From an uncultured Candidatus Saccharibacteria bacterium (GTDB taxonomy: Bacteria; Patescibacteriota; Minisyncoccia; Phycocordibacterales; UBA2100), in the NCBI GenBank assembly GCA_964654205.1, contig CAZZHR010000001.1, positions 65,953 through 129,952 on the forward strand: DNA of 64,000 bases. The letters run 5' to 3'. Positions 4 through 24,393 of this stretch are shown here, one piece after another. A program made the position numbers and the translations under genes. The number at the start of each line of letters is the position of its first letter. The first letter of the stretch is position 1. Below the pieces are notes generated by a model that saw only the letters and a program-made list of their open reading frames with translations, was not told where the DNA came from and ran no database searches.

Positions 4-1014
4 GTGACCGCGCGCAACCTCGGTGCCATGCTCACTGCCGGCCTCTCACTAGCTCGCGCACTTGCGGTCTTGGAGAGACAAACGAGGAATCCTCGACTCG
101 GCGAAGCGATATCCCAAATAGCAAGTGACGTACGGCACGGAGATACGCTGAACCAAAGTCTCGCGAAGTATCCGCGCATTTTCACGCCGCTCTTCGTAGC
201 TATGGTACGCGCGGGCGAGGAGAGCGGCGATTTGGCCGGCTCGCTCAAGGTCACTTCGGAGCAGATGGAACGCATGTACGACCTGCGGAAGAAAATACGT
301 GGCGCGCTCCTGTACCCGTGCATCATTCTCATCGCGATATTCGGTATCGGCGTCCTCATGATGACGCAGGTCGTACCGACTCTGGCGCAAACCTTCGCCG
401 AGATGGATGCGGAACTTCCCGCATCGACCCAGGCGGTCATCGCGACGAGCAACTTCCTCACACAGTATACGTACCTCGCAGCCGCTCTTTTCGCTGCGCT
501 TGTTGCTGCGATGTACACCGGATTACGGACGACTGCGGGGAAGCGTCTTGCCGAATTCACGCTCCTCCACATGCCCGCGATCAACACGATAGCGAAAGAG
601 ATAAACGCGGCTCGCACGTCGCGCACGCTCGCATCGCTGCTCTCTGCGGGAGTCGACGTGCTTTCGGCACTCGATATTTCTCGCGAGGTGGTGCAAAACT
701 CCTACTTTCAGGCCGTGCTCATCGAGGCCAAGAACAACGTGGGACAAGGAGAGCCGCTCTCAAAGGCGTTTGCTCGCAGCGAACACCTCTACCCGCCGTT
801 CGTGGGCGAGATGATGGCGGTGGGAGAAGAAACGGGGCAGACGTCGGACATGCTCAAGCGCCTCGCGGTGTTCTACGAGGAGGAAGTCGACCGTAAGACG
901 AAAGACATGTCGACCATTATCGAACCGTTCCTCATGGTCTTCATTGGTATCGCCGTTGGATTCTTCGCGGTCTCGATGATTACCCCTATCTACTCACTCT
1001 CGCAGAACATATAG
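4..1014 (+). CDS. pilC: Type IV pilus assembly platform protein PilC/GspF family (5' partial, runs off window start)
   Basis: 336-aa ORF reaching the window edge with GspF-type repeats and TM segments. It lies immediately upstream of three prepilin-like genes. Confidence 0.85.
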   Translation: MTARNLGAMLTAGLSLARALAVLERQTRNPRLGEAISQIASDVRHGDTLNQSLAKYPRIFTPLFVAMVRAGEESGDLAGSLKVTSEQMERMYDLRKKIRGALLYPCIILIAIFGIGVLMMTQVVPTLAQTFAEMDAELPASTQAVIATSNFLTQYTYLAAALFAALVAAMYTGLRTTAGKRLAEFTLLHMPAINTIAKEINAARTSRTLASLLSAGVDVLSALDISREVVQNSYFQAVLIEAKNNVGQGEPLSKAFARSEHLYPPFVGEMMAVGEETGQTSDMLKRLAVFYEEEVDRKTKDMSTIIEPFLMVFIGIAVGFFAVSMITPIYSLSQNI

Positions 1015-1054
1015 GCGGCTTATAGCGCATAGTTGCTAGCTTTTAGGTAAATGC

Positions 1055-2806
1055 ATGACCACTACAAGCTACAAGCTACAAGCTGCGAACTCGAATCGGG
1101 GGGTCACACTCATCGACACGCTCGTTGGCTCGGCGCTCATGCTTGTAGTGTTTCTCGGAATAGCCGCAGCGTTCGAACTCTCGGTCGAAGTTGTCACGAG
1201 CAACAAGGCTCGGGCGGGCGCCATCGCGCTCGCCAACGAGAGGATGGAGTACCTCAAGAGTCTTACGTATGCGCAAATTGGTGTCGAGGGAGGCATTCCT
1301 GCCGGCAACGTACCGCAGATCGAGGCGGTCTCGCTCAACGGTGTCGACTACACGAGGCGCACGTTCGTCTCGTACGCAGACGATCCGGAAGATGGGCTCG
1401 GCGTGGCCGATACCAACGACATCATTACCGATTTCAAGAACATTCGCGTCGAGGTCTCATGGGAATCACGGCAGGGGTATAGAAGCGTCGAGCTCATCGG
1501 ACGCGTCTCGCCGCCGGGTGTCGAGACAGCTGTCCCGGGCGGTACGCTCACCATCATCGTTGTGGACGCCGACGATGTACCACTCTCGAACGCGCAGATC
1601 CGCATCGCCAACACTTCGGTCTCGCCGAGTATCAATATCACGACGTTCTCAAGCGATGACGGCACCATCTCATTCATTGGCGCGCCAGCTGCGAGCAACT
1701 ACGAGGTCACAGTGACGAAGAGTGGATACTCGACCGCGCAAACATACGCAGCGACGGTCGCGAATCCCAATCCGACGCCGCGGCACCTGACGGTCACGAA
1801 CGACCAGACAACTTCGTCCACATTCGCGATCGATGTACTCGGCTCGAAAACTATTCGCGTGTACAAACAGGTAGTGCCGGTCTCATGGAACGATACGTTC
1901 AACGACTCATCCTTTATCGCGACGTCGTCGGACATTCTCGTGGGCGGCGGGGAAGTCTCTCTCTCGGGCGAGCCGTACGAAACAGAAGGCTTCTTGCGCT
2001 CCGTGGCCATCGAACCGAGCATCCTGGCAGGATGGAACGAACTCACCTGGATCGATACGACCCCTGCGGGTACCGATGTTATGTATCGCGTCCACGACGC
2101 TACGGGCGGTGTGGACACTCCTCTCCCGGACGGTGTGCTGCCCGGGAATAGTGGAGGCTTCACGGATGCGCCGATAGACCTCACCGGAATCTCAACATCG
2201 ACGTACCGCGCGCTTAAAGTGCATGCGGTGCTCACCACCTCGGATACGGGGGTGACACCGTCCATCCAAGACATCTCGCTTTCGTACGATTATGGACCGG
2301 AACCGTTCCCGAATTTCCTCTTTACGCTCCGAGGAGGGAAAACGATCGGCAATAACCCGACCGTTTACAAGTACAGCAGCGAGCTCACGAGTGACGCGTC
2401 CGCGCTCGTATCTCTGCCGCAAGTGGAGTGGGACTCATACACCATCGGTGTCACCTCGACCAGCACGTACGAGATAGCCGAGGCTTGCGCCCCGCAGCCT
2501 GAATCGCTTGAACCCGGGGCGAGCCAGACGACAAGCATTTTCCTCCTGCCGGCAACCGCGCACTCTCTCCTCGTAGATGTGAGGGACAGCAACGGTGCGC
2601 TCGTTCAGGGAGCGAGCGTCAATGTGATGCGCACGGGTTACAACGAGACCGAGCAGAGTTCTGCATGCGGGCAGGCATTCTTCTCGGGGTTGTCGGAAAC
2701 GACGTACACCATTCTCGTGACGAAGTCGGGGTACCAAGACAACACGACCGCGAGCTTCAACGTCTCGGGAGACACGCGGCTTTCCGTAGTCCTGCAATCG
2801 ATATGA
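1055..2806 (+). CDS. Large type IV pilin-like protein (prepilin N-terminus plus carboxypeptidase-regulatory-like beta-sandwich repeats)
   Basis: Leader MTTTSYKLQAANSNRG, then the class-III signal motif VTLIDTLVGSALMLVVFLG. The protein is 583 aa with repeated 'VVDADDVPL..A.I.I' and 'VDVRDSNGALVQGASVNV' beta-sandwich-like segments. Confidence 0.75.
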   Translation: MTTTSYKLQAANSNRGVTLIDTLVGSALMLVVFLGIAAAFELSVEVVTSNKARAGAIALANERMEYLKSLTYAQIGVEGGIPAGNVPQIEAVSLNGVDYTRRTFVSYADDPEDGLGVADTNDIITDFKNIRVEVSWESRQGYRSVELIGRVSPPGVETAVPGGTLTIIVVDADDVPLSNAQIRIANTSVSPSINITTFSSDDGTISFIGAPAASNYEVTVTKSGYSTAQTYAATVANPNPTPRHLTVTNDQTTSSTFAIDVLGSKTIRVYKQVVPVSWNDTFNDSSFIATSSDILVGGGEVSLSGEPYETEGFLRSVAIEPSILAGWNELTWIDTTPAGTDVMYRVHDATGGVDTPLPDGVLPGNSGGFTDAPIDLTGISTSTYRALKVHAVLTTSDTGVTPSIQDISLSYDYGPEPFPNFLFTLRGGKTIGNNPTVYKYSSELTSDASALVSLPQVEWDSYTIGVTSTSTYEIAEACAPQPESLEPGASQTTSIFLLPATAHSLLVDVRDSNGALVQGASVNVMRTGYNETEQSSACGQAFFSGLSETTYTILVTKSGYQDNTTASFNVSGDTRLSVVLQSI

Positions 2807-3405
2807 CGTGCGGTCGAAAAAGAAAACGGGGCATGACGCTCATCGAAGCAATGGTGTGGATAGCGGTGCTCGTTATTGTCTTCGAGGCGCTCGGGCTCAC
2901 ACTCACGTACTTCTATCGCACGAATCGCTACGCGCTGGAACAAGCGAGTGCAGTGACTTCAGGGCAACGCGGTCTCGAGCAGATGGTCAAAGTGATACGC
3001 GAAGCCGCATACTCGAGCCAGGGAGCATTTCCTATCGTCTCAATAGACGACGACGAGTTTATATTTTACGCGGACGTCGATTCGGACGCGCTCATAGAGC
3101 GCGTACGGTACTACGTAAGTGGCACCGAACTTCTCCGTGGCATCATCGACCCGAGCGGAAACCCGCCCGATTACGCGGGCGCGGAAAGTGTGTCGAATGT
3201 GGCGAGCTATGTACGGAACTCGTCGTTGGGTGCGCCCGTATTCACGTATTACGATGAGCTTGGCAACGAGATCACAGACTACGACAACTGGGCGTACGTG
3301 CGGTTTGTGCAGGTGGCGCTTATCGTGAACGTGGACGCGAATTCACTCCCGAACCAGCTCACGCTCACGTCGTCCGCAGCTCTGCGTAATCTCGTAGGGC
3401 AATAA
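2803..3405 (+). CDS. Pseudopilin / minor pilin (GspG/PulG-like)
   Basis: Leader MTCGRKRKRG followed by MTLIEAMVWIAVLVIVF prepilin cleavage/methylation motif. The start overlaps the upstream stop by 4 bp (ATGA). Confidence 0.75.
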   Translation: MTCGRKRKRGMTLIEAMVWIAVLVIVFEALGLTLTYFYRTNRYALEQASAVTSGQRGLEQMVKVIREAAYSSQGAFPIVSIDDDEFIFYADVDSDALIERVRYYVSGTELLRGIIDPSGNPPDYAGAESVSNVASYVRNSSLGAPVFTYYDELGNEITDYDNWAYVRFVQVALIVNVDANSLPNQLTLTSSAALRNLVGQ

Positions 3406-3409
3406 AGGT

Positions 3410-4891
3410 ATGAATGTAGAATATAGGACAAAAAATAAAGCGACGATGCAAAATCCTACATTCCACATTCCATATACTCGCGCACGGCGCGGGGTCACGG
3501 TGATGCTCGTCCTCGCGTTCATGGGGATTTTCACACTCATCCTCGGGACGATATCCAGCTACGCGCTCATGCAAGCGCGATACGGACGCGCAATCGCGGT
3601 TCGAGAGCAGGCGCTTCATATCGCTGAGGCGGGGCTCGAGTATTACCGATGGTTCCTCAACAAGAATCCCTCTATCCTCAACGCTGGAGTGGGTCTCGTG
3701 AGTCCCGATTCGTATACGCTCGTCGACCCGGAGGGGGGAGAACTCGGTACAGCAAACATCACCGCTACCGCGGACTTGCAGTGCAATGCGGTGCGCTGGG
3801 TCGACATCACCTCGCGCGGCGTCGCCTCACTCGACCCCGTGTTTCCGCGCACGCTGTCCGCACGGTACATGCGCCCGTCCGTCGCAGGGTACTCATACGT
3901 CGTGAACACAAACGTCTGGGCGGGTGCCGACCGCGTCATACGAGGGCCCTACCACAGCAACGGCGGCGTGCGCATGGACGGAACACACAATGCAGAGGTG
4001 ACGAGCTCGGTTTCGACGTGGCAGTGCACGTCCTCATACAACTGCAGTCCCACACAGAACAGTGCGCCGGGCGTGCTCGGGAGTGGCAGCAACCCCTCGC
4101 TGTGGGAGTACCCAGTCTCTACGGTCAACTTCGCTTCCATCGCGGTCGATTTTTCTGACCTCAAATCACGTGCGCAGACCGCGGGAGGCATCTACTACGG
4201 CCCGGCGTCGGGGAGCGTGAACAATCGCGGATATCGGCTCATTTTCAATGCGAACGGTACGGTGACGATATATCGCGTCACACAGACCACGGGCTTTCCG
4301 AGTTACTCTACGCAGTATGGAGACACGACAGAGTACAGCAGAATCAACAACCAGACGTTGCTCGGCACATTCAATATTCCGTCGTCGTGCAGCCTTATGT
4401 TCTTTGAGGACAGGGTGTGGATTGAAGGCACCGTAAACGGGAAAGTGACTGTGGTCGCTGCAACGCCCACGACGACGAGCACGAGTCCCGACATCTATCT
4501 CAACGGCAACATACTCTACGCAGACAACGACGGGAGCGACGGTCTCACGGCGATAGCGGAGCGCAATGTCCTCATTCCGCTCGTGGTGCCCGAGAACATG
4601 GAGATACACGGTATCTTTGTCGCACAGTCCGGGCACTACGGTCGCGACTACTTCTCGACGAGTGATCTCTCCTCAACATACGATCCATACGTGCAGCGAG
4701 CGTCTCTCACGACCGTCGGCACGGTGGTCTCCAATGGTCGCACGGGCACGTCGTGGAGTTGCAACGGCTCGTTCTGCTCGGGCTTCCTGCAGCGGTATGA
4801 CTACTACGACCAGCTCCTCGCGTTCTCGCCCCCACCGTTTACGCCGACTGCGTCGACCGATTACGAATTCGTTCTGTGGCGAGAGGATTAG
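3410..4891 (+). CDS. PilX-like minor pilin / pilus-associated protein
   Basis: N-terminal RGVTVMLVLAFMGIFTLILG hydrophobic segment typical of PilX-type minor pilins, and position within the pilus gene block. The true start may be the internal Met at 3446. Confidence 0.55.
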   Translation: MNVEYRTKNKATMQNPTFHIPYTRARRGVTVMLVLAFMGIFTLILGTISSYALMQARYGRAIAVREQALHIAEAGLEYYRWFLNKNPSILNAGVGLVSPDSYTLVDPEGGELGTANITATADLQCNAVRWVDITSRGVASLDPVFPRTLSARYMRPSVAGYSYVVNTNVWAGADRVIRGPYHSNGGVRMDGTHNAEVTSSVSTWQCTSSYNCSPTQNSAPGVLGSGSNPSLWEYPVSTVNFASIAVDFSDLKSRAQTAGGIYYGPASGSVNNRGYRLIFNANGTVTIYRVTQTTGFPSYSTQYGDTTEYSRINNQTLLGTFNIPSSCSLMFFEDRVWIEGTVNGKVTVVAATPTTTSTSPDIYLNGNILYADNDGSDGLTAIAERNVLIPLVVPENMEIHGIFVAQSGHYGRDYFSTSDLSSTYDPYVQRASLTTVGTVVSNGRTGTSWSCNGSFCSGFLQRYDYYDQLLAFSPPPFTPTASTDYEFVLWRED

Positions 4892-5042
4892 GGCGCGATC
4901 CCGCACTCCGCAGCGGTACGAAACTTCACAGCTGTGAAATTTCTCCGCTTACTCGACGCTCTTCGTAAGAATCTACTGCGGAGTGCGGGACGCGCTTGGG
5001 TTGGTCGTGAAATTCAAAATCAGGACATGTTACAATCGCCGC

Positions 5043-5795
5043 ATGAAATACATTCTTGTCGCCAACTGGAAGCTTTACCCGGCGACGTATAAAGAAGCGA
5101 AGAAGCTCCTCGAGGTCACCAAGTCGGCTGCGGAAAATGCGAGAAACGTGAGCGTCGTCCTCGCTCCGCCGTCTATCTATCTGCGAGAGCTCCGAGCGGT
5201 ATACAAAGGCAAGCGGCTCGCATTCGCCGCCCAGTCGACTCATTTCGAGAACGAGGGTTCATTCACAGGTGAGATTTCGCCCGCACAGGTGAAAGATGCG
5301 AAGATTACGCACGTTATCGTAGGTCACTCCGAGCGCAGGGCTGCGGGTGAGAGCGATGTAGATGTAAAAAAGAAAGTACTCTCCGTGCTCGATAGCGGCA
5401 TGACGCCGATACTTTGTGTGGGAGAAAAAAGGCGTACGCACGATGGGGAACATTTCAACTTCGTTCGCTTGCAGCTTACCGCGGCGCTGCGCGACGTGCC
5501 GCAGGCGAAAATCCCTCGCATCATTGTCGCGTATGAACCGGTGTGGGCAATCGGAGCTGAAAAGGCGATGGCCCCGCGAGACATGCACGAGATGGCCATA
5601 TTTATACGAAAAACAATAGTAGAAATGCATGGGGTGGTGGGGATGAATACGAAAGTGCTCTATGGTGGCGCAATAGACGAGACAAATGCGGCGCGCATGC
5701 TCACCGAAGGCGAAGTCAGCGGCCTGATAGTCGGGCGCGCGTCTGCAAATCCCTTCAAGATCAAGGCACTCATCGAGACAATCGCGGAAATATGA
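5043..5795 (+). CDS. tpiA: Triosephosphate isomerase
   Basis: MKYILVANWKLY N-terminus with GHSERR and AYEPVWAIG catalytic motifs. Start taken at the internal Met. Confidence 0.92.
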   Translation: MKYILVANWKLYPATYKEAKKLLEVTKSAAENARNVSVVLAPPSIYLRELRAVYKGKRLAFAAQSTHFENEGSFTGEISPAQVKDAKITHVIVGHSERRAAGESDVDVKKKVLSVLDSGMTPILCVGEKRRTHDGEHFNFVRLQLTAALRDVPQAKIPRIIVAYEPVWAIGAEKAMAPRDMHEMAIFIRKTIVEMHGVVGMNTKVLYGGAIDETNAARMLTEGEVSGLIVGRASANPFKIKALIETIAEI

Positions 5796-5912
5796 ATTCA
5801 GTGAGAGGCTACAGAAGACGGATACATATGTGTCAGACGGTGAAGCGTATTATGTGGGTCGAATGTGTATCAGAATCTAACGCGGGAAGTGTCGCTCTCT
5901 GCCTCTAACGAG

Positions 5913-7046
5913 ATGAAGTGCATTGATGAAGTTGCCCCGGCGGAATTGAAAGGCAAGCGTGTTTTCCTTCGCACGAGCCTGAATCTCCCGCTCTCCGCTG
6001 ACGGTTCCGTCAAGGAGATCTTCAGGCTCCAGCGCGCGCTGCCCACCGTGCGCTATCTCGTACAGTGCGGGGCAAAAGTCATCATCGTCGGGTACCTGGG
6101 GCGCAAGGGCGATTCGATGCGACCTGTCGCCGAAGCGCTCATCAAACTCACTCCCGACATTCGGATGTACTTCTTCGGTACGCCTTTTGAAATGGCCAAA
6201 GCCGAATCCGAGGCGCTCAAAGAGGGAGAATGCCTCATACTCGAGAGCACTCGGCGGCATCCTGGCGAAGAGACCAACGATCCGGCGTTCATTGACATGC
6301 TCGCGTCGCTCGCCGACATCTTTGTGAGCGACGCGTTCGCCGAGGCGCACCGCGACTACGCATCGAACGTCGCACTTGCGAAGAAACTCCCCGCTTTTAG
6401 TGGGCTCCTCATGCGCGACGAGGTCAAAGAGCTCTCCGCTGCGCGCGAACCCGAGAAACCCTCGCTCGCGATACTCGGTGGTGCAAAGTTTGAGACGAAG
6501 GCTCCGCTCATCAAGCAACTGCTCCGCACATACGATCACGTATTCATCACAGGCGCCCTTGCCAACGACGTGTTCAAGGCACGCGGTCTCCCCGTGGGTC
6601 GTTCGCTCATATCGGCGGAACTTCCAGGCATTGACGTGCTTGAGCACCCCAATTTCGTCGTACCGGTCGATGTCACAGTCGAGAGGCTCGACAAACAGGC
6701 GCGAGTCAAAAAGCCGAGCGAAGTCGAGGCGCAAGACAAGATAGTCGATATTGGACCCGACTCCGTTAAAGAGATAGCTCCGCTCGTAGCAGCCGCTAAG
6801 TTCATATTGTGGAACGGACCGACGGGTCTTTACGAAGAGGGATACAGCTCGTACACGTACGCTATCGCAGAACTCGTCGCGAAAAGTTCGGCGAAGAAGA
6901 TTCTTGGCGGAGGGGATACCATCGCCGCGATAAAGGATTCCGGTGTTCCCGACGACGAGCTCGGTTTCCTCTCGACTGGCGGCGGGGCGATGCTCGAGTA
7001 CTTACTGAAGGGCACCCTCCCTGGTGTCTCTGCTCTGGATTCGTAA
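5913..7046 (+). CDS. pgk: Phosphoglycerate kinase
   Basis: KGKRVFLRTSLNLP N-terminal motif, GGAKFETKAPLI and GGGDT nucleotide-binding motifs. Start taken at the internal Met MKCIDE. Confidence 0.92.
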   Translation: MKCIDEVAPAELKGKRVFLRTSLNLPLSADGSVKEIFRLQRALPTVRYLVQCGAKVIIVGYLGRKGDSMRPVAEALIKLTPDIRMYFFGTPFEMAKAESEALKEGECLILESTRRHPGEETNDPAFIDMLASLADIFVSDAFAEAHRDYASNVALAKKLPAFSGLLMRDEVKELSAAREPEKPSLAILGGAKFETKAPLIKQLLRTYDHVFITGALANDVFKARGLPVGRSLISAELPGIDVLEHPNFVVPVDVTVERLDKQARVKKPSEVEAQDKIVDIGPDSVKEIAPLVAAAKFILWNGPTGLYEEGYSSYTYAIAELVAKSSAKKILGGGDTIAAIKDSGVPDDELGFLSTGGGAMLEYLLKGTLPGVSALDS

Positions 7047-7108
7047 GCTCGACCCTCGAACTACGTCTTGATAGGTACCGCACACCTAGAAAGCGGTACA
7101 ATATCCAT

Positions 7109-8731
7109 ATGAACACGAGCATCCGCAATATTTTTATTGCATCGCTTATTTCAGCATCGATTATCGGCTCCGCTGCGCTCGCGACGCCCGCAGCTGCGCA
7201 GAGCGTAGGAGATATCCAGCGTCAGATTCAGGAACTCCTCGCCAAAATAGCGGCGCTGCAGGAGCAATTGAAGCTGACAGTTGCCGCGCAGGGGAACGCT
7301 TCATCGAGTTCGGCTCCTGTCGGCGACATCTCCTTTACGGCCGTGCCGCGCATATGCAAAATCTTTCCGGAACACGCGCTTTCATTCGGCAATCGCGGAG
7401 AGCAGGTGCTCGGGCTTCAGGAATTCTTGAAGGCGGAAGGTTACTTCAGTGCGGAAGGCACGGGTTTCTTCGGACCGCTTACGCGCGATGCGCTTGCGCG
7501 CTGGCAAGCAGCACAGGGCTTCGAGGCCGCTGGCGCGATGGGACCTCTTACGCGCGAGCGCATTCGCGCGCGCTGCGCGCAAAACGATGTCCTTTCGGTG
7601 CGCCCAACGAGCGGAAGCGCGCCGCTCACTGTCACGTTCTCAGCCAATGTGACGCTCACGAACAGTGCGATGATTGCCGACGCGGGAGAGTACAAAATAG
7701 TGTTTGGCGACGGCAACGAACAGAAACTTGAGTGCAAGGATACGGTGCTCGGAACGTGCCGCGGTCCCATCACAGTAAGTCACACGTACCAACGCGACGG
7801 CTCGTATACCGCGAGCCTGGTGCACTATGGTTTTTTCGGTCCGCCCGAAGCGAGTGTGAACGGTACCGTGCGCGGCAAAGTATTCGTACAGGTGGGCGGC
7901 CCGGTCGCATGCACAAAGGAATACATGCCCGTCTGCGGCGCGAAGCAAGTTGTGTGCATTACGACGCCCTGCAATCCCGTGCAGCAAACATACGGCAACC
8001 GTTGCATGATGGCGGCCGACGGAGCGTCCCTCGTGCACGAAGGAGCATGCCGCGCCGATACGTCAGACCCGGCCGCAGACGCGCGCTGCAGACAGTGGTA
8101 CGACGGATGCAACACGTGTTCGCGGCAGTCTGCCGGAGGTCCCGCGATCTGCACGCTCCGCGCGTGTACGCCGGAAAGTACTACGAAGCCGTACTGCTCC
8201 GAGTATTTCACCGATGTCGCCAACAAACCGCCGACCATCAGCGCGCTTTCTGGTCCCACCTCGCTCAAAGTTGGGGAGTCGGGTTCTTGGACAGTACAGG
8301 CATCAGACCCAGAGAACGGCCAACTCTACTACAGCATCGTGTGGGGCGACGAATCGGTCTATGCGTATGGTCTCAACACAGCTTCCGCACGAGATACATT
8401 CTCGCAGACCGCTACATTCAGTCATACCTATTCTCGCGAGGGTACCTACACTGTGATTGTAGTCGTACGCGATACGGCCGGGCTGGAGGCTAAAACGACC
8501 ATGTCCGTTCGCGTGTCGGCAAGCAGTCCGACGATATGCACTCTAGAGTACGCACCGGTGTGCGGTCGACCGACGGGTTGTGCCAACACCTGTCCACCAG
8601 GCCAGTACTGCGCCGCCATATGCCGCTTGCACGAGCCCGTCACCTACGGCAACCGCTGTCAGATGAACGCGGCGGGAGCAACCTTCCTCCACCAAGGCGA
8701 ATGCACGGCGAATAGTTCAAGCATTTACTAG
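7109..8731 (+). CDS. Secreted multidomain protein: signal peptide, PG-binding-like domain, two PKD-like domains, two Kazal-type Cys-rich domains
   Basis: Start MNTSIRNIFIASLISASIIGSAALA (signal peptide). PG_binding_1-like segment 'GNRGEQVLGLQEFLKAEGYFSAEG..GPLTRDAL..WQAAQG'. PKD-like 'APLTVTFSANVT..FGDG'. Kazal-like 'C..EYMPVCG..TYGNRC..GEC' twice. Confidence 0.7.
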   Translation: MNTSIRNIFIASLISASIIGSAALATPAAAQSVGDIQRQIQELLAKIAALQEQLKLTVAAQGNASSSSAPVGDISFTAVPRICKIFPEHALSFGNRGEQVLGLQEFLKAEGYFSAEGTGFFGPLTRDALARWQAAQGFEAAGAMGPLTRERIRARCAQNDVLSVRPTSGSAPLTVTFSANVTLTNSAMIADAGEYKIVFGDGNEQKLECKDTVLGTCRGPITVSHTYQRDGSYTASLVHYGFFGPPEASVNGTVRGKVFVQVGGPVACTKEYMPVCGAKQVVCITTPCNPVQQTYGNRCMMAADGASLVHEGACRADTSDPAADARCRQWYDGCNTCSRQSAGGPAICTLRACTPESTTKPYCSEYFTDVANKPPTISALSGPTSLKVGESGSWTVQASDPENGQLYYSIVWGDESVYAYGLNTASARDTFSQTATFSHTYSREGTYTVIVVVRDTAGLEAKTTMSVRVSASSPTICTLEYAPVCGRPTGCANTCPPGQYCAAICRLHEPVTYGNRCQMNAAGATFLHQGECTANSSSIY

Positions 8732-9141
8732 AACGACGCGCGTATCTTTTCTTCGAGGGATTGTGCTTCGCCTTCGTTGTAGTCGTTGTGTTTCCACTGC
8801 GTCAGCCCGTCGCCTCTGTAGCGCGGGATGACATGTATGTGCGGGTGGTCAATAACCTGCCCGGCATTCGAGCGATTGTTCATCATGATATTGACGCCGT
8901 CTGCGCCTGTGGCTTTTTCTACCGCGTGCGCGACCTTGCGCGCGGTCTCGGTGGTCGCGAGCCAGTCTTCGGGCGAGACATCGAAAATATTCTGGGTGTT
9001 TTCGGCCTTCGGGATGACGAGCGTGTGTCCGGGGTTCACCGGGTGAATATCGAGAAATGCGAGCGTTTTTTCGTCTTCGTACACTTTAAAGGAGGGGAGT
9101 TCTCCTCGGACGATTTTGCAGAACACGCAATCGTTGGCCAT
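8728..9141 (-). CDS. HIT-family protein (histidine triad nucleotide hydrolase)
   Basis: MANDCVFCKI N-terminus and HPHIHVIP histidine triad. The stop codon overlaps the convergent upstream gene's stop within a CTAG tetranucleotide. Confidence 0.85.
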   Translation of the reverse strand: MANDCVFCKIVRGELPSFKVYEDEKTLAFLDIHPVNPGHTLVIPKAENTQNIFDVSPEDWLATTETARKVAHAVEKATGADGVNIMMNNRSNAGQVIDHPHIHVIPRYRGDGLTQWKHNDYNEGEAQSLEEKIRASF

Positions 9142-9230
9142 AGGGATGTGTATGTTGTATCTAGTATGCCGTACGTAGTATGAAAATTGCGTACAAAATA
9201 CCAGATACCACATACTATATACTACGCGGG

Positions 9231-10886
9231 ATGGGACTTTCTGAGCTCGTACAGACACTCCTCAAAAAGCGCGGTATCGAAGACACCGCCGCATTCCTCT
9301 CTCCCGACTATGAGCTCCACACGCATTCGCACGCACTTTTTGCAGACATGGAAGCGGCAGTTTCGCGCGTGCTCGCAGCAGTAGAGAAAGGTGAACGCAT
9401 CGCTATCTACGCGGATTTTGATTGCGACGGTATTCCTGGCGCCGCACTTCTCTCTGACGTGTTTCAGAAAATCGGGTACGGAAACTACGAAATATACATA
9501 CCGCATCGCGACAAAGAGGGCTACGGCCTGCATACAGATGCTATCGATGCGCTGCGAGAGAGGGGTGTGACGCTCATGATAACGGTCGATGTGGGTACGA
9601 CAGCGGTAGACGCTGTTGCCTACGCGTCGGAGCGCGGTATCGACACGATTGTGACGGACCACCACGAGCTTGGCGCGGAGCTTCCGCGCGCTGTTGCAGT
9701 TCTCAATCCGAAGCGAGAGCCCTACCCGTACCCACATTTGTGCGGTGCCGGGGTCGCGTTCAAGTTTGCGCAGGCACTCATCGAAGCGGGCAAGAAGCGT
9801 GGCGTAGCGGGATTCGCGCCTGTTGCTCCAGGGTGGGAAAAGTGGCTCCTCGATCTCGTAGCAATCGCCACGGTGGCGGATATGGTCCCACTCATCGGCG
9901 AGAATCGCGTGCTTGCGCACTGGGGACTCACCGTGCTCCGTAAGTCGCCGCGGCCGGGCATTACAGCGCTTCTCTCGCAGCTCCGCATGCGGAAAGCGGA
10001 ACTCACCGAAGAGGATATTGGATTTTCCATCGCGCCGCGCATCAATGCCGCGTCGCGTATGGACAATCCTGACCTTGCGCTGAAACTCCTCACGGCCAAA
10101 GACCCGAAAGAAGCAGAAGAGATTGCGGCGAGCCTCGAGAAACTCAATGCGTCGCGCAAGGGTGTTGTCGCGGGAATCGTGCGCGAAGCAAAAAAGCGAA
10201 CGCGCGCGCGGTTCCAGCCGGGCGAAGTTGTCGTGCTCGGCGACCCTGAGTGGAAGCCGGCACTCCTTGGTCTCGCTGCAAATTCAATCATGGGTGATCG
10301 CGGTGGTGTCGTGTGCCTGTGGGGACGCGATGCGCTCGGTCGCATCAAGGGCTCGTGCCGTTCCGACGGGGAAATGTCCGTCGTCGAACTTCTCACCGGC
10401 GCGGGGGATGCCTTTACGGAATCGGGCGGGCACGCTGCGTCGGGAGGATTCACTGTTGCGGAGGGGGCAGTGCACACGCTCCCGGAGAGGCTTGCGAGTG
10501 TCGCGCAGAATCTCGTGCGCAAGACGGCCGCGGAGGTGGCGCGTGAGGATGCATCCATAGCGCTCCGCGAGGTTTCGTTCGCGCTTCTGCGTGACATCTC
10601 ACAGCTCGCGCCGTTTGGTATTGGCAACCCGAAGCCCCTGTTTCGTATACGCCGCGTTCGCGTCTGCGAAGTGCGCCGCTTCGGCAAAGAAAAGAACCAC
10701 GTCGAGGTGACGCTCGCGTGTCGGGAGACCTCTGCGACTGCGCGCGGATTTGATTTTTTCCGAGCCCCTGAGGATTTTACTTATGCACCCGTACCGCAGG
10801 CTGAGGCATCGGTGCTTGCGACGGTGGAGCGCGATACGTACCGCGGCGGCCTCGCGCTCAGATTGGTGGACATACTGCCCGCCTGA
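9231..10886 (+). CDS. recJ: Single-stranded-DNA-specific exonuclease RecJ
   Basis: DHH motifs (IYADFDCDGI, TVDVG, VTDHHE) and a DHHA1-like C-terminal region. Confidence 0.85.
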   Translation: MGLSELVQTLLKKRGIEDTAAFLSPDYELHTHSHALFADMEAAVSRVLAAVEKGERIAIYADFDCDGIPGAALLSDVFQKIGYGNYEIYIPHRDKEGYGLHTDAIDALRERGVTLMITVDVGTTAVDAVAYASERGIDTIVTDHHELGAELPRAVAVLNPKREPYPYPHLCGAGVAFKFAQALIEAGKKRGVAGFAPVAPGWEKWLLDLVAIATVADMVPLIGENRVLAHWGLTVLRKSPRPGITALLSQLRMRKAELTEEDIGFSIAPRINAASRMDNPDLALKLLTAKDPKEAEEIAASLEKLNASRKGVVAGIVREAKKRTRARFQPGEVVVLGDPEWKPALLGLAANSIMGDRGGVVCLWGRDALGRIKGSCRSDGEMSVVELLTGAGDAFTESGGHAASGGFTVAEGAVHTLPERLASVAQNLVRKTAAEVAREDASIALREVSFALLRDISQLAPFGIGNPKPLFRIRRVRVCEVRRFGKEKNHVEVTLACRETSATARGFDFFRAPEDFTYAPVPQAEASVLATVERDTYRGGLALRLVDILPA

Positions 10887-15335: not shown

Positions 15336-15378
15336 TGCATCAATATAACATCGCCGTTCGTGAAGCTAGAATGTACGG

Positions 15379-16233
15379 ATGCGCTCTTCGTCGAAGTTCG
15401 TCGCTTTCCTCCTCGCCCTCCTTGTCCTCGTGCTCGGATGCATTGCATACGCCATCGCGCACGAAGACCGAGGCGGACTCCTCACCGTATCGTTCCTCGA
15501 CGTAGGGCAAGGCGATGCGATTTTTATCGACGCACCGTCGGGGCGACAGGTGCTCATCGACGGCGGACCGAACGCGCAGGTGCTTCGCGCATTGTCCCGC
15601 GAAATGCCGTGGTACGACAGGCATATCGACGTCGTGCTCGCGACGCATCCGGATGCCGACCACATCGGCGGACTCGTGGACGTACTCGAACGCTATAAGG
15701 TCGACACGATTGTGCGTTCGAGCGCGGAAGGCGATACCGCGCTCGCCGAGACGTTTGATAGTCTCGCCACTTCTGGCAGATATGCGACTTTTTTCGCAGA
15801 GCGCGGACATATCCTCGACCTCGGGGAGGGCGCGCAGCTGGAAATACTCTTTCCGGACAGGCCGGTTCCTGGACTCGAAGCGAACGTCGGGTGTGTCGTC
15901 GCGCGACTGACGTACGGCGACACCGCATTCATGCTCCCGTGCGATACGCCTGATGAAATAGAGCTCTACCTTGCCCGACTAGGTCGCGACCGTTTGAAAG
16001 CAGATGTGCTCAAAGCTGCGCACCATGGCTCAAAAACGTCGTCGGCCGCGGCGTTCGTCGGTGCCGTGTCTCCGGCGTACGCGGTATTCTCGCGCGGCTG
16101 CGAAAACAGCTACGGACACCCACATCCGGACGTCGTTGCCACATTTGAGCGGTTCGAAATCTCGACACTCGACACGTGCGAAGAGGGGACGATTACGTTT
16201 GTGAGCGATGGACAAACGGTGTCGCTTCGGTAG
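15379..16233 (+). CDS. ComEC-type metallo-beta-lactamase-fold domain protein (stand-alone, membrane-anchored)
   Basis: N-terminal TM segment, 'LTVSFLDVGQGDAIFIDAP' and 'ATHPDADHIGG' motifs of the ComEC C-terminal MBL domain, plus 'KAAHHGSKTS'. Confidence 0.8.
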   Translation: MRSSSKFVAFLLALLVLVLGCIAYAIAHEDRGGLLTVSFLDVGQGDAIFIDAPSGRQVLIDGGPNAQVLRALSREMPWYDRHIDVVLATHPDADHIGGLVDVLERYKVDTIVRSSAEGDTALAETFDSLATSGRYATFFAERGHILDLGEGAQLEILFPDRPVPGLEANVGCVVARLTYGDTAFMLPCDTPDEIELYLARLGRDRLKADVLKAAHHGSKTSSAAAFVGAVSPAYAVFSRGCENSYGHPHPDVVATFERFEISTLDTCEEGTITFVSDGQTVSLR

Positions 16234-22363: not shown

Positions 22364-22605
22364 TGGTACCGGAGTACAAGATGAGATCGTGGCGAATCGG
22401 AAATAGCAACGTGTGCCTCAAGCGCATTTCCATTTCGCGAGCATCGAATACGACGGGGTGAGATGAATCACTGGAAGATATCACAGGCGTAAGAGTGTGC
22501 GCTTTGCGGCCGCGCAATATTTCCCGATCCACAGTACATAGACATTTCATTGATCTCGGTGGGGGTAAGTCCCAACAGTATGTCTTCGCGGGCTATAATT
22601 GAGAT

Positions 22606-24393
22606 ATGAGGTTATATGCCGTCGTGCTCCTCCTCGTGTTGGCGCTGCCGTCGACTGCACGTGCAAGCTACGAACTCATCACGACGACGGGCACGTGGAC
22701 AGTCCCGCCAGGCGTGTATTCACTCAATGTGTTTGCGGTAGGCGGAGGAGGCGGCGGCGGCGGAAATGCGGCCGGGTGGGGAAGCGGCGGTGGTGGCGGG
22801 TGCGGCGGTGCAATCAACGGGACAAGCATCAACGTGAGCCCCGGCCAGCAGATCGCAGTCACTGTCGGTGCGGGCGGCCTCGGCGGGCAGGGCGCCGGCA
22901 ACGGTTCGAGCGGCGGCACGACAAGTTTCGGATCATACCTATCGGCTGCGGGGGGGAGTTGGGGAAGGAGCGGATACTACAATTTATATGGTAGCTACTA
23001 CGGTGGTTCGGGGGGAGGCTCTAGTGGAGGCGGCGGCGGCAACGGCTGGTCGGGGTTCTATGCGATTCCGGGAGATGGTGGCACTGCGGGGGGTGCTACC
23101 AATAGTCATGGTGCGGGGGGCGATTGTATAGGTGGCGGATGGAGTGTAAACCCCGCGAGTTTCATTACGCAGGCCGCGTGGAGCGCTGGTGTAGGCGGTG
23201 ACGTACCCCAAAGTTACAACTACTACGGCGGTGGCGGTGGCGGAGGTGTCGTAATCGCTGGAAGTGCTGTACAGGGCGGGAGCGAGGGCGGCACGCCGGG
23301 CGGCTCAGGATACGGCGGTGGCGGCGGCGGCCACTGCTGGACATGCGGAGTCTCGGGGAATGGAGGGAGTGGCGCGAGCGGCGTCGTGTACGTGGAGTAC
23401 ATTGATCCGCCCCCCTCATGCACGATCTCGCTGGCACCGAGCAGTGTCAATGAGCCTGGTTCCGCCACCCTCTCGTGGAACTCTACGAGCGGCCAGAGCT
23501 TTTACATATCAAACGTCGGATACGTCTCGGCGAGCGGTTCGACGACCATCGCCCCCTCGCTTACCACGACCTACAACGGGACAGTAGAGGGTTTGGGCGG
23601 TACTGCCACGTGCGAGAACACGCTGACGGTCAATGCGCTCTGTACGCTCGATGGAGAAGAAGTCTCCCACGGTTCGTCGATTACGGCGTACGAGAGCGAG
23701 ACCGTGCCGTACGGAGAAGGGTGTGCGTCGGAGGTGCGCACGTGTACGAATGGAACGCTCTCGGGCGCGTTCGCGTACACATCCTGCGTGGTGGACGAAC
23801 CAGCTTCGTGTACGCTTGATGGTGTTACTGTCGCACATGGCGACTCGCGCACCTTCTACTCTGTCTCGGACGCCGTAGCGGGGCAGCTCTGTTCCGATCA
23901 CGCGCTCAGCCGCACATGCAACAACGGTGTCCTCTCCGGCAGCTCCGCGTACGAGTACGCCACATGCGGCTGCACGCCCTTTTACTCGTGCTCAGGTCAG
24001 ACTATCCAATACACCAACGACCTGTGTAGCACATCACCCGTGACCACGTGCGTCACCCCGTTCTTCTGTTCGTCGGGTGCTGCCGTGTGTCTCAATGCGC
24101 CGCCTTCGTTCAATGCGCAGGGATCATTCTCAGGTCACCTACAGATTCGACCGCAGATTCTTCCTGTAGGAGGGCGCGCACGTGTGCACTGGGATCTTTC
24201 CAACGTGGAGAGCTGCACGGTTGAGGGCAGCAACGGCGACTCGTGGACGGGCGAGGCGTCGGGGGCGAGCGGCAGGCAGACGTCGCCTATCGTGCAACAC
24301 ACCCGCTACACACTCCTCTGCGAGGGCTCAGATGGCTCGTCGGTATCGGAATCTCAGGTCGTGAACATCCTTCCCGTGTTCCTCGAGCGCTGA
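22606..24393 (+). CDS. Secreted glycine-rich-domain protein (copy A) with Cys-rich middle region and conserved C-terminal module
   Basis: Signal peptide MRLYAVVLLLVLALPSTARA. 'TWTVPPGVYSLNVFAVGGGGGGGGNAAGWGSGGGGGCGG' glycine-rich motif. Paralogous to 29464..31179. The C-terminal ~80 aa are shared with 41256..42218. A perfect TATAAT lies 6 nt upstream of the ATG. Confidence 0.7.
   Translation: MRLYAVVLLLVLALPSTARASYELITTTGTWTVPPGVYSLNVFAVGGGGGGGGNAAGWGSGGGGGCGGAINGTSINVSPGQQIAVTVGAGGLGGQGAGNGSSGGTTSFGSYLSAAGGSWGRSGYYNLYGSYYGGSGGGSSGGGGGNGWSGFYAIPGDGGTAGGATNSHGAGGDCIGGGWSVNPASFITQAAWSAGVGGDVPQSYNYYGGGGGGGVVIAGSAVQGGSEGGTPGGSGYGGGGGGHCWTCGVSGNGGSGASGVVYVEYIDPPPSCTISLAPSSVNEPGSATLSWNSTSGQSFYISNVGYVSASGSTTIAPSLTTTYNGTVEGLGGTATCENTLTVNALCTLDGEEVSHGSSITAYESETVPYGEGCASEVRTCTNGTLSGAFAYTSCVVDEPASCTLDGVTVAHGDSRTFYSVSDAVAGQLCSDHALSRTCNNGVLSGSSAYEYATCGCTPFYSCSGQTIQYTNDLCSTSPVTTCVTPFFCSSGAAVCLNAPPSFNAQGSFSGHLQIRPQILPVGGRARVHWDLSNVESCTVEGSNGDSWTGEASGASGRQTSPIVQHTRYTLLCEGSDGSSVSESQVVNILPVFLER

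Follow-up and report, generated by a model that had tools for sequence, protein, structure and literature searches.

Within a 64,000-nucleotide stretch of contig CAZZHR010000001.1 (hereafter the window, meaning the whole stretch at its full length), we identified a gene whose 540-amino-acid (aa) product is probably a peptidoglycan-tethered serine protease inhibitor with three canonical heads, judging from its sequence and from the similarity of its loops to those of proven inhibitors. Its parts run in the order signal peptide, helix, PG_binding_1, PKD, Kazal-1, pacifastin-like module, PKD, and Kazal-2, and the product contains 24 cysteines in all. The open reading frame (ORF) as listed spans 6809..8731, and we take the ATG at 7109 as the biological start; orthologs start at the equivalent Met, and an identical 540-aa product has been called in public assemblies (P0001, 100% identity). 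The gene, its domains, and a candidate promoter element are arranged as follows.

7109..8731, + strand: whole gene, 540 aa plus stop codon (ATG at 7109; the stop codon ends at 8731)
7109..7201, + strand: putative Sec-type signal peptide, approximately aa 1-31 (by inspection)
7205..7297, + strand: predicted long alpha-helix, aa 33-63, with a heptad-like Q/I/L pattern (AlphaFold2)
7355..7576, + strand: PG_binding_1 domain (Pfam match at aa 96-151), flanked by the invariant C83 and C156
7586..7894, + strand: PKD-like beta-sandwich 1, aa 160-262, with one Cys pair, C209/C217 (Pfam, AlphaFold2)
7904..8053, + strand: Kazal-1, aa 266-315, a four-Cys core plus a 16-residue insert (Pfam, PDB profile, Foldseek)
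8081..8212, + strand: pacifastin-like module, aa 325-368, putative P1 = Leu350 (Pfam, PDB profile, Foldseek)
8222..8512, + strand: PKD domain 2, aa 372-468 (Pfam, PDB profile, Foldseek)
8531..8707, + strand: Kazal-2, aa 475-533, a four-Cys core plus a 24-residue insert (hhalign, PDB profile, Pfam)
7097..7102, + strand: TACAAT, a hexamer resembling a -10 element, 6 nucleotides upstream of the ATG (read from the sequence)

Two of the Cys-rich segments are Kazal domains of a nonclassical, four-Cys kind. The initial annotation had proposed two Kazal-type domains, and Pfam Kazal_1, profile comparisons with the PDB, hhalign, and predicted-structure matches agree with it. The equivalents of Kazal Cys2, Cys3, Cys4, and Cys6 are C268, C276, C299, and C314 in Kazal-1 and C477, C485, C517, and C532 in Kazal-2, and the motifs read CTKEYMPVCG-AKQVVCITTPCNPVQQ-TYGNRC-...-EGAC (residues 268-314) and CTLEYAPVCG-RPTGCANTCPPGQYCAAICRLHEP-VTYGNRC-...-QGEC (residues 477-532). 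The consensus offered by that annotation is slightly off in two details: both segments are present, but the gap from PVCG to the following Cys is 5 and 4 residues, not 6-8, and domain 1 ends in GAC, not GEC. Scanned alone, segment 1 scores 25.9 bits with Kazal_1 (cutoff, 21 bits), and Kazal-2 rises from 15.0-15.3 bits to 22.1 bits when its four-Cys insert is taken out; a precomputed PF00050 match is present in ~40% of orthologs. Kazal-1 and Kazal-2 align with each other by hhalign (probability 99.5, E = 2.7e-22), and their profiles retrieve 52 and 47 PDB sequences, respectively, almost all of them Kazal, with GmSPI-2 the best match in both cases (E = 6.8e-6 for Kazal-1 and 1.6e-7 for Kazal-2) and infestin at 6e-5 for Kazal-1. 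Farther down, this similarity to solved Kazal inhibitors extends to infestin, the Anemonia elastase inhibitor, CrSPI-1, many ovomucoid third domains, LDTI, and PSTI.

Structure prediction points the same way. In an AlphaFold2 model of residues 255-375 (36-sequence alignment; confidence score [pLDDT] of 77), Kazal-1 is predicted to adopt the hairpin-helix-strand fold, with strands at 275-279, 291-295, and 307-311 and a helix at 298-303, and the best Foldseek matches of the model in the PDB are Kazal inhibitors: 4hgu (GmSPI-2), with a target-normalized TM-score (TMt) of 0.78 and a probability of 1.00, and 2kmo (LDTI), with a TMt of 0.73. Hidden Markov models (HMMs) for Kazal, PG_binding_1, and PKD all match the protein, and no HMM places the Kazal segments in another fold. 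The 16-residue insert of Kazal-1, with C283 and C288, is modeled as an extended hairpin; the 24-residue insert of Kazal-2 carries C491, C495, C501, and C505, and in at least 10 orthologs it is shorter and lacks three of these four Cys positions.

The putative reactive loops conform to C-T-P1-E-Y-x-P-[VL]-C-G, accompanied by the Asn of TYxNxC: Kazal-1 has A-C-T-K270-E-Y, with Lys at P1, and Kazal-2 has I-C-T-L479-E-Y, with Leu at P1 here. In OMTKY3 structures, the P2 Thr, P1' Glu, P2' Tyr, and TYxNxC Asn hold the Kazal loop in its canonical shape. OMTKY3, a classical Kazal inhibitor (MEROPS I1), reads ACTLEYRPLCG where Kazal-2 reads ICTLEYAPVCG, and OMTKY3-Lys18 reads ACTKEYRPLCG where Kazal-1 reads ACTKEYMPVCG; in both pairs, P3 to P2' are identical (C-T-L-E-Y and C-T-K-E-Y), and a TYGN(K/R)C motif is common to OMTKY3 and the two modules. 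OMTKY3 differs in having six Cys and three disulfides, and its Cys1 and Cys5 have no counterpart here. GmSPI-2, by contrast, has four Cys and is a strong inhibitor of subtilisin and proteinase K (PMC4169406). It shares with our modules the two-disulfide Kazal core without a Cys1-Cys5 bridge, as well as the loop and helix motifs (vCTtEwdPVCG ... kTYsNlC ... hEGeC); it is, however, a free insect protein of 36 residues, whereas here the cores carry inserts with two or four extra Cys and are part of a 540-aa bacterial protein that is predicted to bind the wall.

Conservation counts were taken from an alignment of 115 orthologs. In Kazal-1, T269, E271, Y272, P274, Y295, and N297 are invariant or nearly so, with Thr at P2 in 113/115 orthologs, Glu at P1' in 112/115, Tyr at P2' in 114/115, and the TYxNxC Asn in 115/115. 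P1 of Kazal-1 is Lys in 96 of the 115, and P1 of Kazal-2 is hypervariable (Met, Ala, Leu, and others; entropy, 2.80 bits).

The initial annotation recognized the two Kazal heads and missed a third inhibitor-type head, the pacifastin-like module at residues 325-368, which reads C327-RQWYDG-C334-N-T-C337-S-R339-QSAGGPAI-C348-T-L-R-A-C353-TPESTTKPY-C363. All 11 PDB matches of its profile belong to the pacifastin family, led by PMP-C/LCMI-II (E = 2.1e-4) and followed by SGPI-1, SGPI-2, and CTI homologs, and it aligns with PMP-C without gaps (ksWyDGCNsCsRstpggpamCTlraC versus ktfkDkCNtCrCgadgksaaCTlkaC). AlphaFold2 predicts three short strands in the module, and pacifastins occupy Foldseek ranks 3-7 (7sao, 7sap, 1gl1_J, and 7snc among them), with root mean square deviations of 2.1-2.3 Å and 43-44% identity over 28-32 columns; below these ranks is noise. 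The similarity to solved, canonical pacifastins is found at the levels of both profile and predicted fold. Scanned alone, the region falls just short of the Pacifastin_I cutoff (27.1 versus 27.9 bits), and a precomputed PF05375 match is present in 3 of the 120 homologs listed. Among the families rejected in the scans of single regions was Toxin_13, at 14.5 bits (cutoff, 21 bits).

Pacifastins have the signature C1-x(9-12)-C2-N-x-C3-x-C4-x(2-3)-G-x(3-6)-C5-T-x3-C6. With the locust inhibitors PMP-C/LCMI-II and SGPI and the CTI homologs (1GL1, 1PMC, 7SAO, 7SAP, and 7SNC; PF05375, MEROPS I19), our module shares D-x-C-N-T-C ... A-x-C-T-L-(K/R)-A-C, and the loop of PMP-C, which has been solved in complex with chymotrypsin, reads CNTC...CTLKAC where ours reads CNTC...CTLRAC. 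It differs in its bacterial host, in its subcutoff Pfam score, in having R339 in place of Cys4, in a C1-C2 spacing of 6 rather than 9-12, and in a new invariant Cys, C363, which lies 9 residues past Cys6 and is the presumed partner of Cys1. In one ortholog (P0014), C334, C337, C348, and C353 are lost together and C327 and C363 are retained, and in seven orthologs all six module Cys are deleted together. These co-losses fit the pairs C334-C353, C337-C348, and a relocated C327-C363, which we infer to be the pairing in the module. The putative reactive site C-T-L-(R/K)-(A/Y)-C is kept, with Leu in 102/108 orthologs and Arg or Lys in 99/108.

A database search identified 337 homologs; among the matches listed (120), nearly all are full length, at ~475-600 aa and 44-85% identity. 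Where the sources name an organism, it is Candidatus Kaiserbacteria or Paceibacterota, in line with the host from the candidate phyla radiation (CPR) that the initial annotation had suggested. The homologs are named "peptidoglycan-binding protein," "PKD domain-containing protein," or "hypothetical protein," and none is named an inhibitor. The Cys framework is kept by nearly all of the 115 aligned orthologs, with 8 of the 24 Cys positions strictly invariant, and the three Cys modules are the best-conserved regions of the protein, as the following mean column entropies show.

Kazal-1: 0.87 bits
Pacifastin-like module: 1.19 bits
Kazal-2: 1.27 bits
PG-binding domain: 1.35 bits
PKD 2: 1.48 bits
PKD 1: 1.79 bits
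N-terminus: 2.23 bits

The exposed P1 varies widely in one head but is conserved in the other two, so that selection acts on the loops themselves and not on the scaffold alone. The family also includes reduced and expanded forms. In one lineage, a 95-aa protein (P0121; L004 8001-8288, on a 17-kb contig of Logan ERR14949496) consists of a signal anchor and a single pacifastin-like module with the loop CTTMAC; it has not retained PG_binding_1, and it occupies exactly the genomic slot of the full-length gene, between tpiA-pgk and HIT-recJ. The expanded forms P0008 and P0017 have three Kazal and two pacifastin-like modules and are encoded elsewhere in the genome. Separately, we note that a set of third-party annotation assemblies in the European Nucleotide Archive titled "uncultured Candidatus Saccharibacteria bacterium" (L008-L015, L019, L020, L024, and L026) carry this Kaiserbacteria-type gene, and that most of them (not L024) also have the tpiA-pgk and HIT-recJ flanks; the Saccharibacteria labels of these automated bins are probably wrong.

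By inspection, the putative signal peptide has a basic N-region (MNTSIR), a hydrophobic core of ~19 residues, PAAAQ, and an Ala-X-Ala site, and has no lipobox Cys; A30 is nearly invariant in the ortholog alignment, and AlphaFold2 places a helix at 4-20 with low pLDDT. In the predicted helix at 33-63, which is a possible coiled-coil stalk, Q37, I40, L43, and L50 are invariant or near-invariant. The N-terminal peptidoglycan-binding module of the initial annotation is borne out by a PG_binding_1 (PF01471) score of 38.2 bits against a cutoff of 23 in the whole protein and by a predicted three-helix fold (helices at 98-110, 123-135, and 146-158; pLDDT 89-97), and the PDB relatives of this region are SleB, endolysins, and L,D-transpeptidase. 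No NCBIfam model exists for the protein, and what this collection yields are weak hydrolase matches from the peptidoglycan-binding module only. Two identities suggested by that collection were rejected: PamR, a CPR pilus protein, at 24.9 bits against a cutoff of 300, and a SleB-type peptidoglycan hydrolase, which the binding module alone matches, at 32 bits against 236.5.

The two PKD-like beta-sandwiches proposed previously are also recovered, domain 2 strongly and domain 1 at the cutoff. In the whole protein, aa 372-467 score 50.6 bits with PKD_4 (cutoff, 27) and 44.8 bits with PKD (cutoff, 23.5), and a second stretch scores more weakly; scanned alone, domain 1 reaches 23.5 bits with PKD, equal to the cutoff, and 23.7 bits with PKD_4. 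Domain 1 is predicted to form a seven-strand beta-sandwich with mostly high pLDDT, and domain 2 matches PDB entry 4xed both by profile (E = 6.7e-8) and by Foldseek (TMt, 0.81), with the PKD domains of ColG and ColH at TMt 0.75-0.78. Membership in the PKD families (PF00801/PF18911) is thus supported by score and by the beta-sandwich fold.

The domain assignments of the initial annotation are thus supported, and the roles it suggested, as a protease inhibitor or adhesin and perhaps host-directed, are putative. We propose that the protein would be exported by the Sec pathway and its signal peptide cleaved near Ala30, after which PG_binding_1 would tether it noncovalently to the cell's own wall, with the preceding helix serving as a stalk or in oligomer formation. 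Twelve disulfides would form, and three standard-mechanism heads would be displayed, with the PKD domains as spacers. Besides the pacifastin-like pairs given above, homology predicts C268-C299, C276-C314, and C283-C288 in Kazal-1 and C477-C517 and C485-C532 in Kazal-2, with two further pairs among C491, C495, C501, and C505. Each head would insert a rigid, substrate-like loop into the active site of an S1 (trypsin/chymotrypsin fold) or S8 (subtilisin) protease and bind tightly without turnover. Kazal-1, with Lys at P1, would be directed at trypsin-like enzymes; the pacifastin-like module, with Leu at P1, at chymotrypsin-, elastase-, or subtilisin-like enzymes; and Kazal-2, with its variable P1, at a lineage-specific target. 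The protein is probably a surface shield against proteases: it would keep extracellular serine proteases, whether from a host, grazers, or neighboring microbes, from attacking the exposed envelope, the pili, and the surface proteins of a very small cell that presumably has no outer membrane. We favor inhibition because the loops match those of proven inhibitors, with P1 conserved in two heads and hypervariable in one; because GmSPI-2, which has the same four-Cys core, is a proven inhibitor; and because the module recurs together with wall anchors and with other inhibitor families. Ecotin and the Streptomyces subtilisin inhibitor are extracytoplasmic bacterial canonical-loop inhibitors of S1 or S8 proteases, and ecotin shields the envelope from foreign proteases; both have folds unrelated to those described here, with one head per chain and no peptidoglycan tether.

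Several observations weigh against an inhibitory role. Classical Kazal Cys1 and Cys5 lack counterparts in both modules, and the six-Cys pattern (pairs 1-5, 2-4, and 3-6) is absent; long inserts with Cys residues of their own separate PVCG from TY in both modules; and the pacifastin-like module has an invariant Arg339 at the position of Cys4. When the whole protein is scanned, Kazal_1 scores only 15.4 bits (aa 267-278; cutoff, 21) and Pacifastin_I 20.5 bits (aa 329-359; cutoff, 27.9), and such tiny domains give only weak Foldseek E-values (0.09-2). The pacifastin-like module is missing in 7 of the 115 orthologs and Kazal-2 in several, and inhibitors engaged in an arms race are usually hypervariable, in contrast to the strongly conserved P1 of two heads here. 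Kazal-like modules are also found in the noninhibitory proteins follistatin, agrin, and SPARC. Finally, no protease gene adjoins the 540-aa gene, either here or at related loci; a crude, nonexhaustive motif scan of the 64-kb window for S1, S8, HtrA, and S41 signatures gave nothing credible, and nonexhaustive Pfam scans of 20 large window ORFs found no protease. With no S1 or S8 protease found in the window, no target is indicated.

Alternatively, the protein might inhibit the cell's own secreted or envelope serine proteases, much as the Streptomyces inhibitor is paired with subtilisin-like enzymes, and restrain them at the wall, providing no defense against foreign ones. The conserved P1 residues (Lys in 96/115; Leu in 102/108) would suit an endogenous partner better than an arms race, and the gene has a stable, core-gene-like position. 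Nonetheless, neither the window nor the regions flanking related loci yielded an S1 or S8 protease, and hypervariability at P1 of Kazal-2 points to external targets that change; we regard this explanation as rather unlikely, if the least unlikely of the alternatives.

Ranking after it, and unlikely as well, is a surface adhesin or structural envelope protein, in which the PKD domains and disulfide knots would form a rigid, protease-resistant stalk or a surface for binding partner cells and the loops would be noninhibitory. Adhesins and matrix proteins typically contain tandem arrays of PKD or other Ig-like domains, RbmA, S-layer proteins, and cadherins are among the Foldseek matches, and noninhibitory Kazal-like modules do exist; a weak NCBIfam match to PamR and the type IV pilus-like genes upstream are also compatible with such a role. 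However, the PamR score of 24.9 bits compares with a cutoff of 300, and an adhesin leaves unexplained both the near-invariant exposed P1 Lys and Leu within archetypal inhibitor loops and the co-occurrence of the module with WAP and antistasin domains elsewhere. A role in cell wall remodeling, with PG_binding_1 as the functional core (as in SleB and endolysins) and the rest as accessory, is highly improbable: the best NCBIfam and PDB neighbors of residues 90-155 are indeed peptidoglycan hydrolases, but there is no catalytic domain, the hydrolase matches cover only the binding module (32 of the 236.5 bits required), and the 95-aa ortholog keeps the pacifastin-like module and not PG_binding_1.

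To return to the favored three-headed inhibitor, its modules recur well beyond this family. An exhaustive search of 1.84 billion representative proteins with the pacifastin-like profile (E <= 0.001) matched 979 proteins; among the 144 best-scoring additional proteins of the 979, 124 have the variant Cys pattern only and 17 are canonical multidomain pacifastins. Two canonical pacifastins that were retrieved score 493 and 624 bits in Pfam and have 14 and 18 domains, respectively. A word-indexed search with the 51-residue module profile, for which the index is ill-suited because such indexes handle short queries poorly, gave 10 candidates and one match. The named members of the variant group are protists of the stramenopile-alveolate-rhizarian (SAR) group (Vaucheria litorea, Strombidium inclinatum, and Crypthecodinium cohnii), whose proteins, taken whole, exceed the Pfam cutoff at 30-82 bits. 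These proteins and P0258, a eukaryote-like protein combining WAP, Kazal, pacifastin, and antistasin domains, share with our module the pattern C-x2-W-[YF]-DGCN-x-C-x-R ... C-T-x3-C ... C; the SAR proteins differ in being eukaryotic transcripts with 2-13 tandem modules and acidic linkers, and in having no PG_binding_1 or PKD domain. For one retrieved protein, P0130, the MMETSP TAXON_ID of 87120 denotes a fungus in current NCBI taxonomy, which is implausible for that data set, and the label was not used. Among prokaryote-like proteins, the variant module is accompanied by a PG_binding_1 anchor in P0137 and P0140 and by an SLH anchor in P0135 and P0141, the latter being a 527-aa protein, encoded on an NCBI contig of 1.33 Mb, with a thioredoxin domain besides SLH.

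The Kazal-like module is likewise distributed more broadly than the initial annotation implied in calling such domains rare in bacteria, which was an overstatement. In one scan of species-representative genomes, the module alone was found in Absconditabacteria/SR1, Gracilibacteria, Peribacteria, and Magasanikbacteria; in DPANN and thaumarchaeal archaea, with Nanoarchaeota, Nitrosotenuis, and Thermoproteota as the archaeal names; and in Polyangiaceae, Cellvibrionaceae, Hellea, and three cultured Ensifer strains. In Ensifer adhaerens SD006, an ORF of 189 aa (L087, 2857-3426) resembles a lipoprotein, with an LSAC lipobox, and contains a tandem of three Kazal-like modules of the plain four-Cys type, with Met, Arg, and Arg as the putative P1 residues; coming from a cultured alphaproteobacterium, it could be a tractable model for bacterial Kazal function. 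An Absconditabacterales genome encodes a 100-aa secreted protein with one module that carries the CITxPC insert of Kazal-1.

In the literature on bacterial or CPR Kazal inhibitors, we found nothing on this family. For pacifastins, Rodriguez-Aguilar et al. (2026; PMC13388995) report pacifastin-like domains in CPR metagenome-assembled genomes and Myxobacteria, identified mainly by structure search: 24 bacterial proteins, from Woesebacteria, Uhrbacteria, WS6, Sorangium, Chondromyces, and others, in genomes of 35-49.5% GC (those of CPR) or 68.5-71.5% GC, with a canonical six-Cys core required. Kaiserbacteria appear in neither the text nor the supplements of that paper, and no wall-anchored Kazal-plus-pacifastin architecture was found in the parts of it that were covered.

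The 540-aa gene lies in a conserved genomic setting: type IV pilus-like genes, tpiA, pgk, the 540-aa gene, an HIT-family gene on the opposite strand, recJ, rnhA, and comEC. pgk (5865..7046) ends 62 nucleotides upstream of the ATG at 7109, and the HIT gene overlaps the stop codon of the 540-aa gene by 4 nucleotides. The order tpiA-pgk-[gene]-HIT-recJ is found in two other Kaiserbacteria assemblies (~50% protein identity) and in most of ~19 full-length loci from species-representative genomes, and the gene is vertically inherited at this position. Directly upstream of tpiA, at 4-4891 of the window, are genes for a T2SSF (PilC-like) protein, a 583-aa CarboxypepD_reg/SpaA-fold protein, and an N-methyl pseudopilin, together with a 493-aa ORF without a Pfam match; this type IV pilus-like set also precedes tpiA-pgk in related genomes (L003 and L004).

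The TACAAT hexamer may belong to a promoter of the gene's own that gives rise to a leaderless transcript. Against an expectation of 4.8 +/- 2.0, TAnAAT-N5-7-[AG]TG occurs 16 times across the window, with 14 occurrences on the + strand; the sites include 5031-5045, 7097-7111, 15367-15381, 22594-22608, 32186-32200, and 59014-59028, and several coincide with the starts of long ORFs. This suggests that leaderless mRNAs are widespread in this Kaiserbacteria genome. A sigma-70 and terminator scan of 4800-9400 was uninformative, returning one promoter-like site where 2.4 were expected.

Other features of the region were recorded in passing. Two ~595-aa proteins with Gly_rich_2 (PF21722) are encoded at 22606-24393 and 29389-31179, and in a related locus (L001) a 1,762-aa PG_binding_1 plus Gly_rich_2 protein is encoded upstream of tpiA. 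On the - strand at 33421-36604, a YcaO cyclodehydratase-family gene (34964-36604) adjoins a 513-aa ORF without a Pfam match, and this may be a peptide modification locus (for a ribosomally synthesized and posttranslationally modified peptide or for thioamide formation) in a CPR genome. The 933-aa product of an ORF at 61188-63989 weakly resembles coupling proteins of type IV secretion (TraG-D_C, TrwB, and T4SS-DNA_transf). Between 12001 and 14000, GC content rises to 63.5%, compared with ~57% elsewhere, and the AT skew is markedly negative (-0.167); this segment spans the 3' end of comEC and the next ORF, of 311 aa and without a Pfam match.

The constituent families (Kazal, pacifastin, PG_binding_1, and PKD) are already known. 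The novelty lies in their coming together in a bacterial protein predicted to bind the wall, in the inserts with extra Cys that both Kazal modules carry, in the disulfide relocation that Cys co-loss suggests for the pacifastin-like module, and in the conserved genomic position in Kaiserbacteria. Should the three heads prove active, the protein would be the first described from bacteria, as far as we have found, to join Kazal and pacifastin-type inhibitors and display them on the cell's own wall, and it would provide a concrete surface defense or host interaction factor for Kaiserbacteria. The claim of the 2026 paper that pacifastins are not an arthropod invention would then cover protists and one more bacterial lineage; a variant disulfide framework, found in at least 124 of the best 144 clusters of 979, would be established; and several hundred database entries annotated as "peptidoglycan-binding," "PKD domain-containing," or "hypothetical" would gain a functional annotation. 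Disulfide-stabilized inhibitor modules as small as these, with their inserts, could also serve as engineering scaffolds.

More tentatively, and with more doubt than confidence, we suggest that Kaiserbacteria possess a vertically inherited, fixed-position, peptidoglycan-tethered hybrid of Kazal and pacifastin, two families generally associated with animals, and that its middle head belongs to a large, unnamed subfamily, with Arg for Cys4 and a disulfide moved to a new C-terminal Cys, common to SAR protists and wall-anchored (PG_binding_1 or SLH) prokaryotic proteins. If this is true, inhibitor modules would have been exchanged between microbial eukaryotes and ultrasmall bacteria, and surface-tethered, multispecific inhibition would be a general means by which cells without an outer membrane survive the proteases of hosts, grazers, and competitors.

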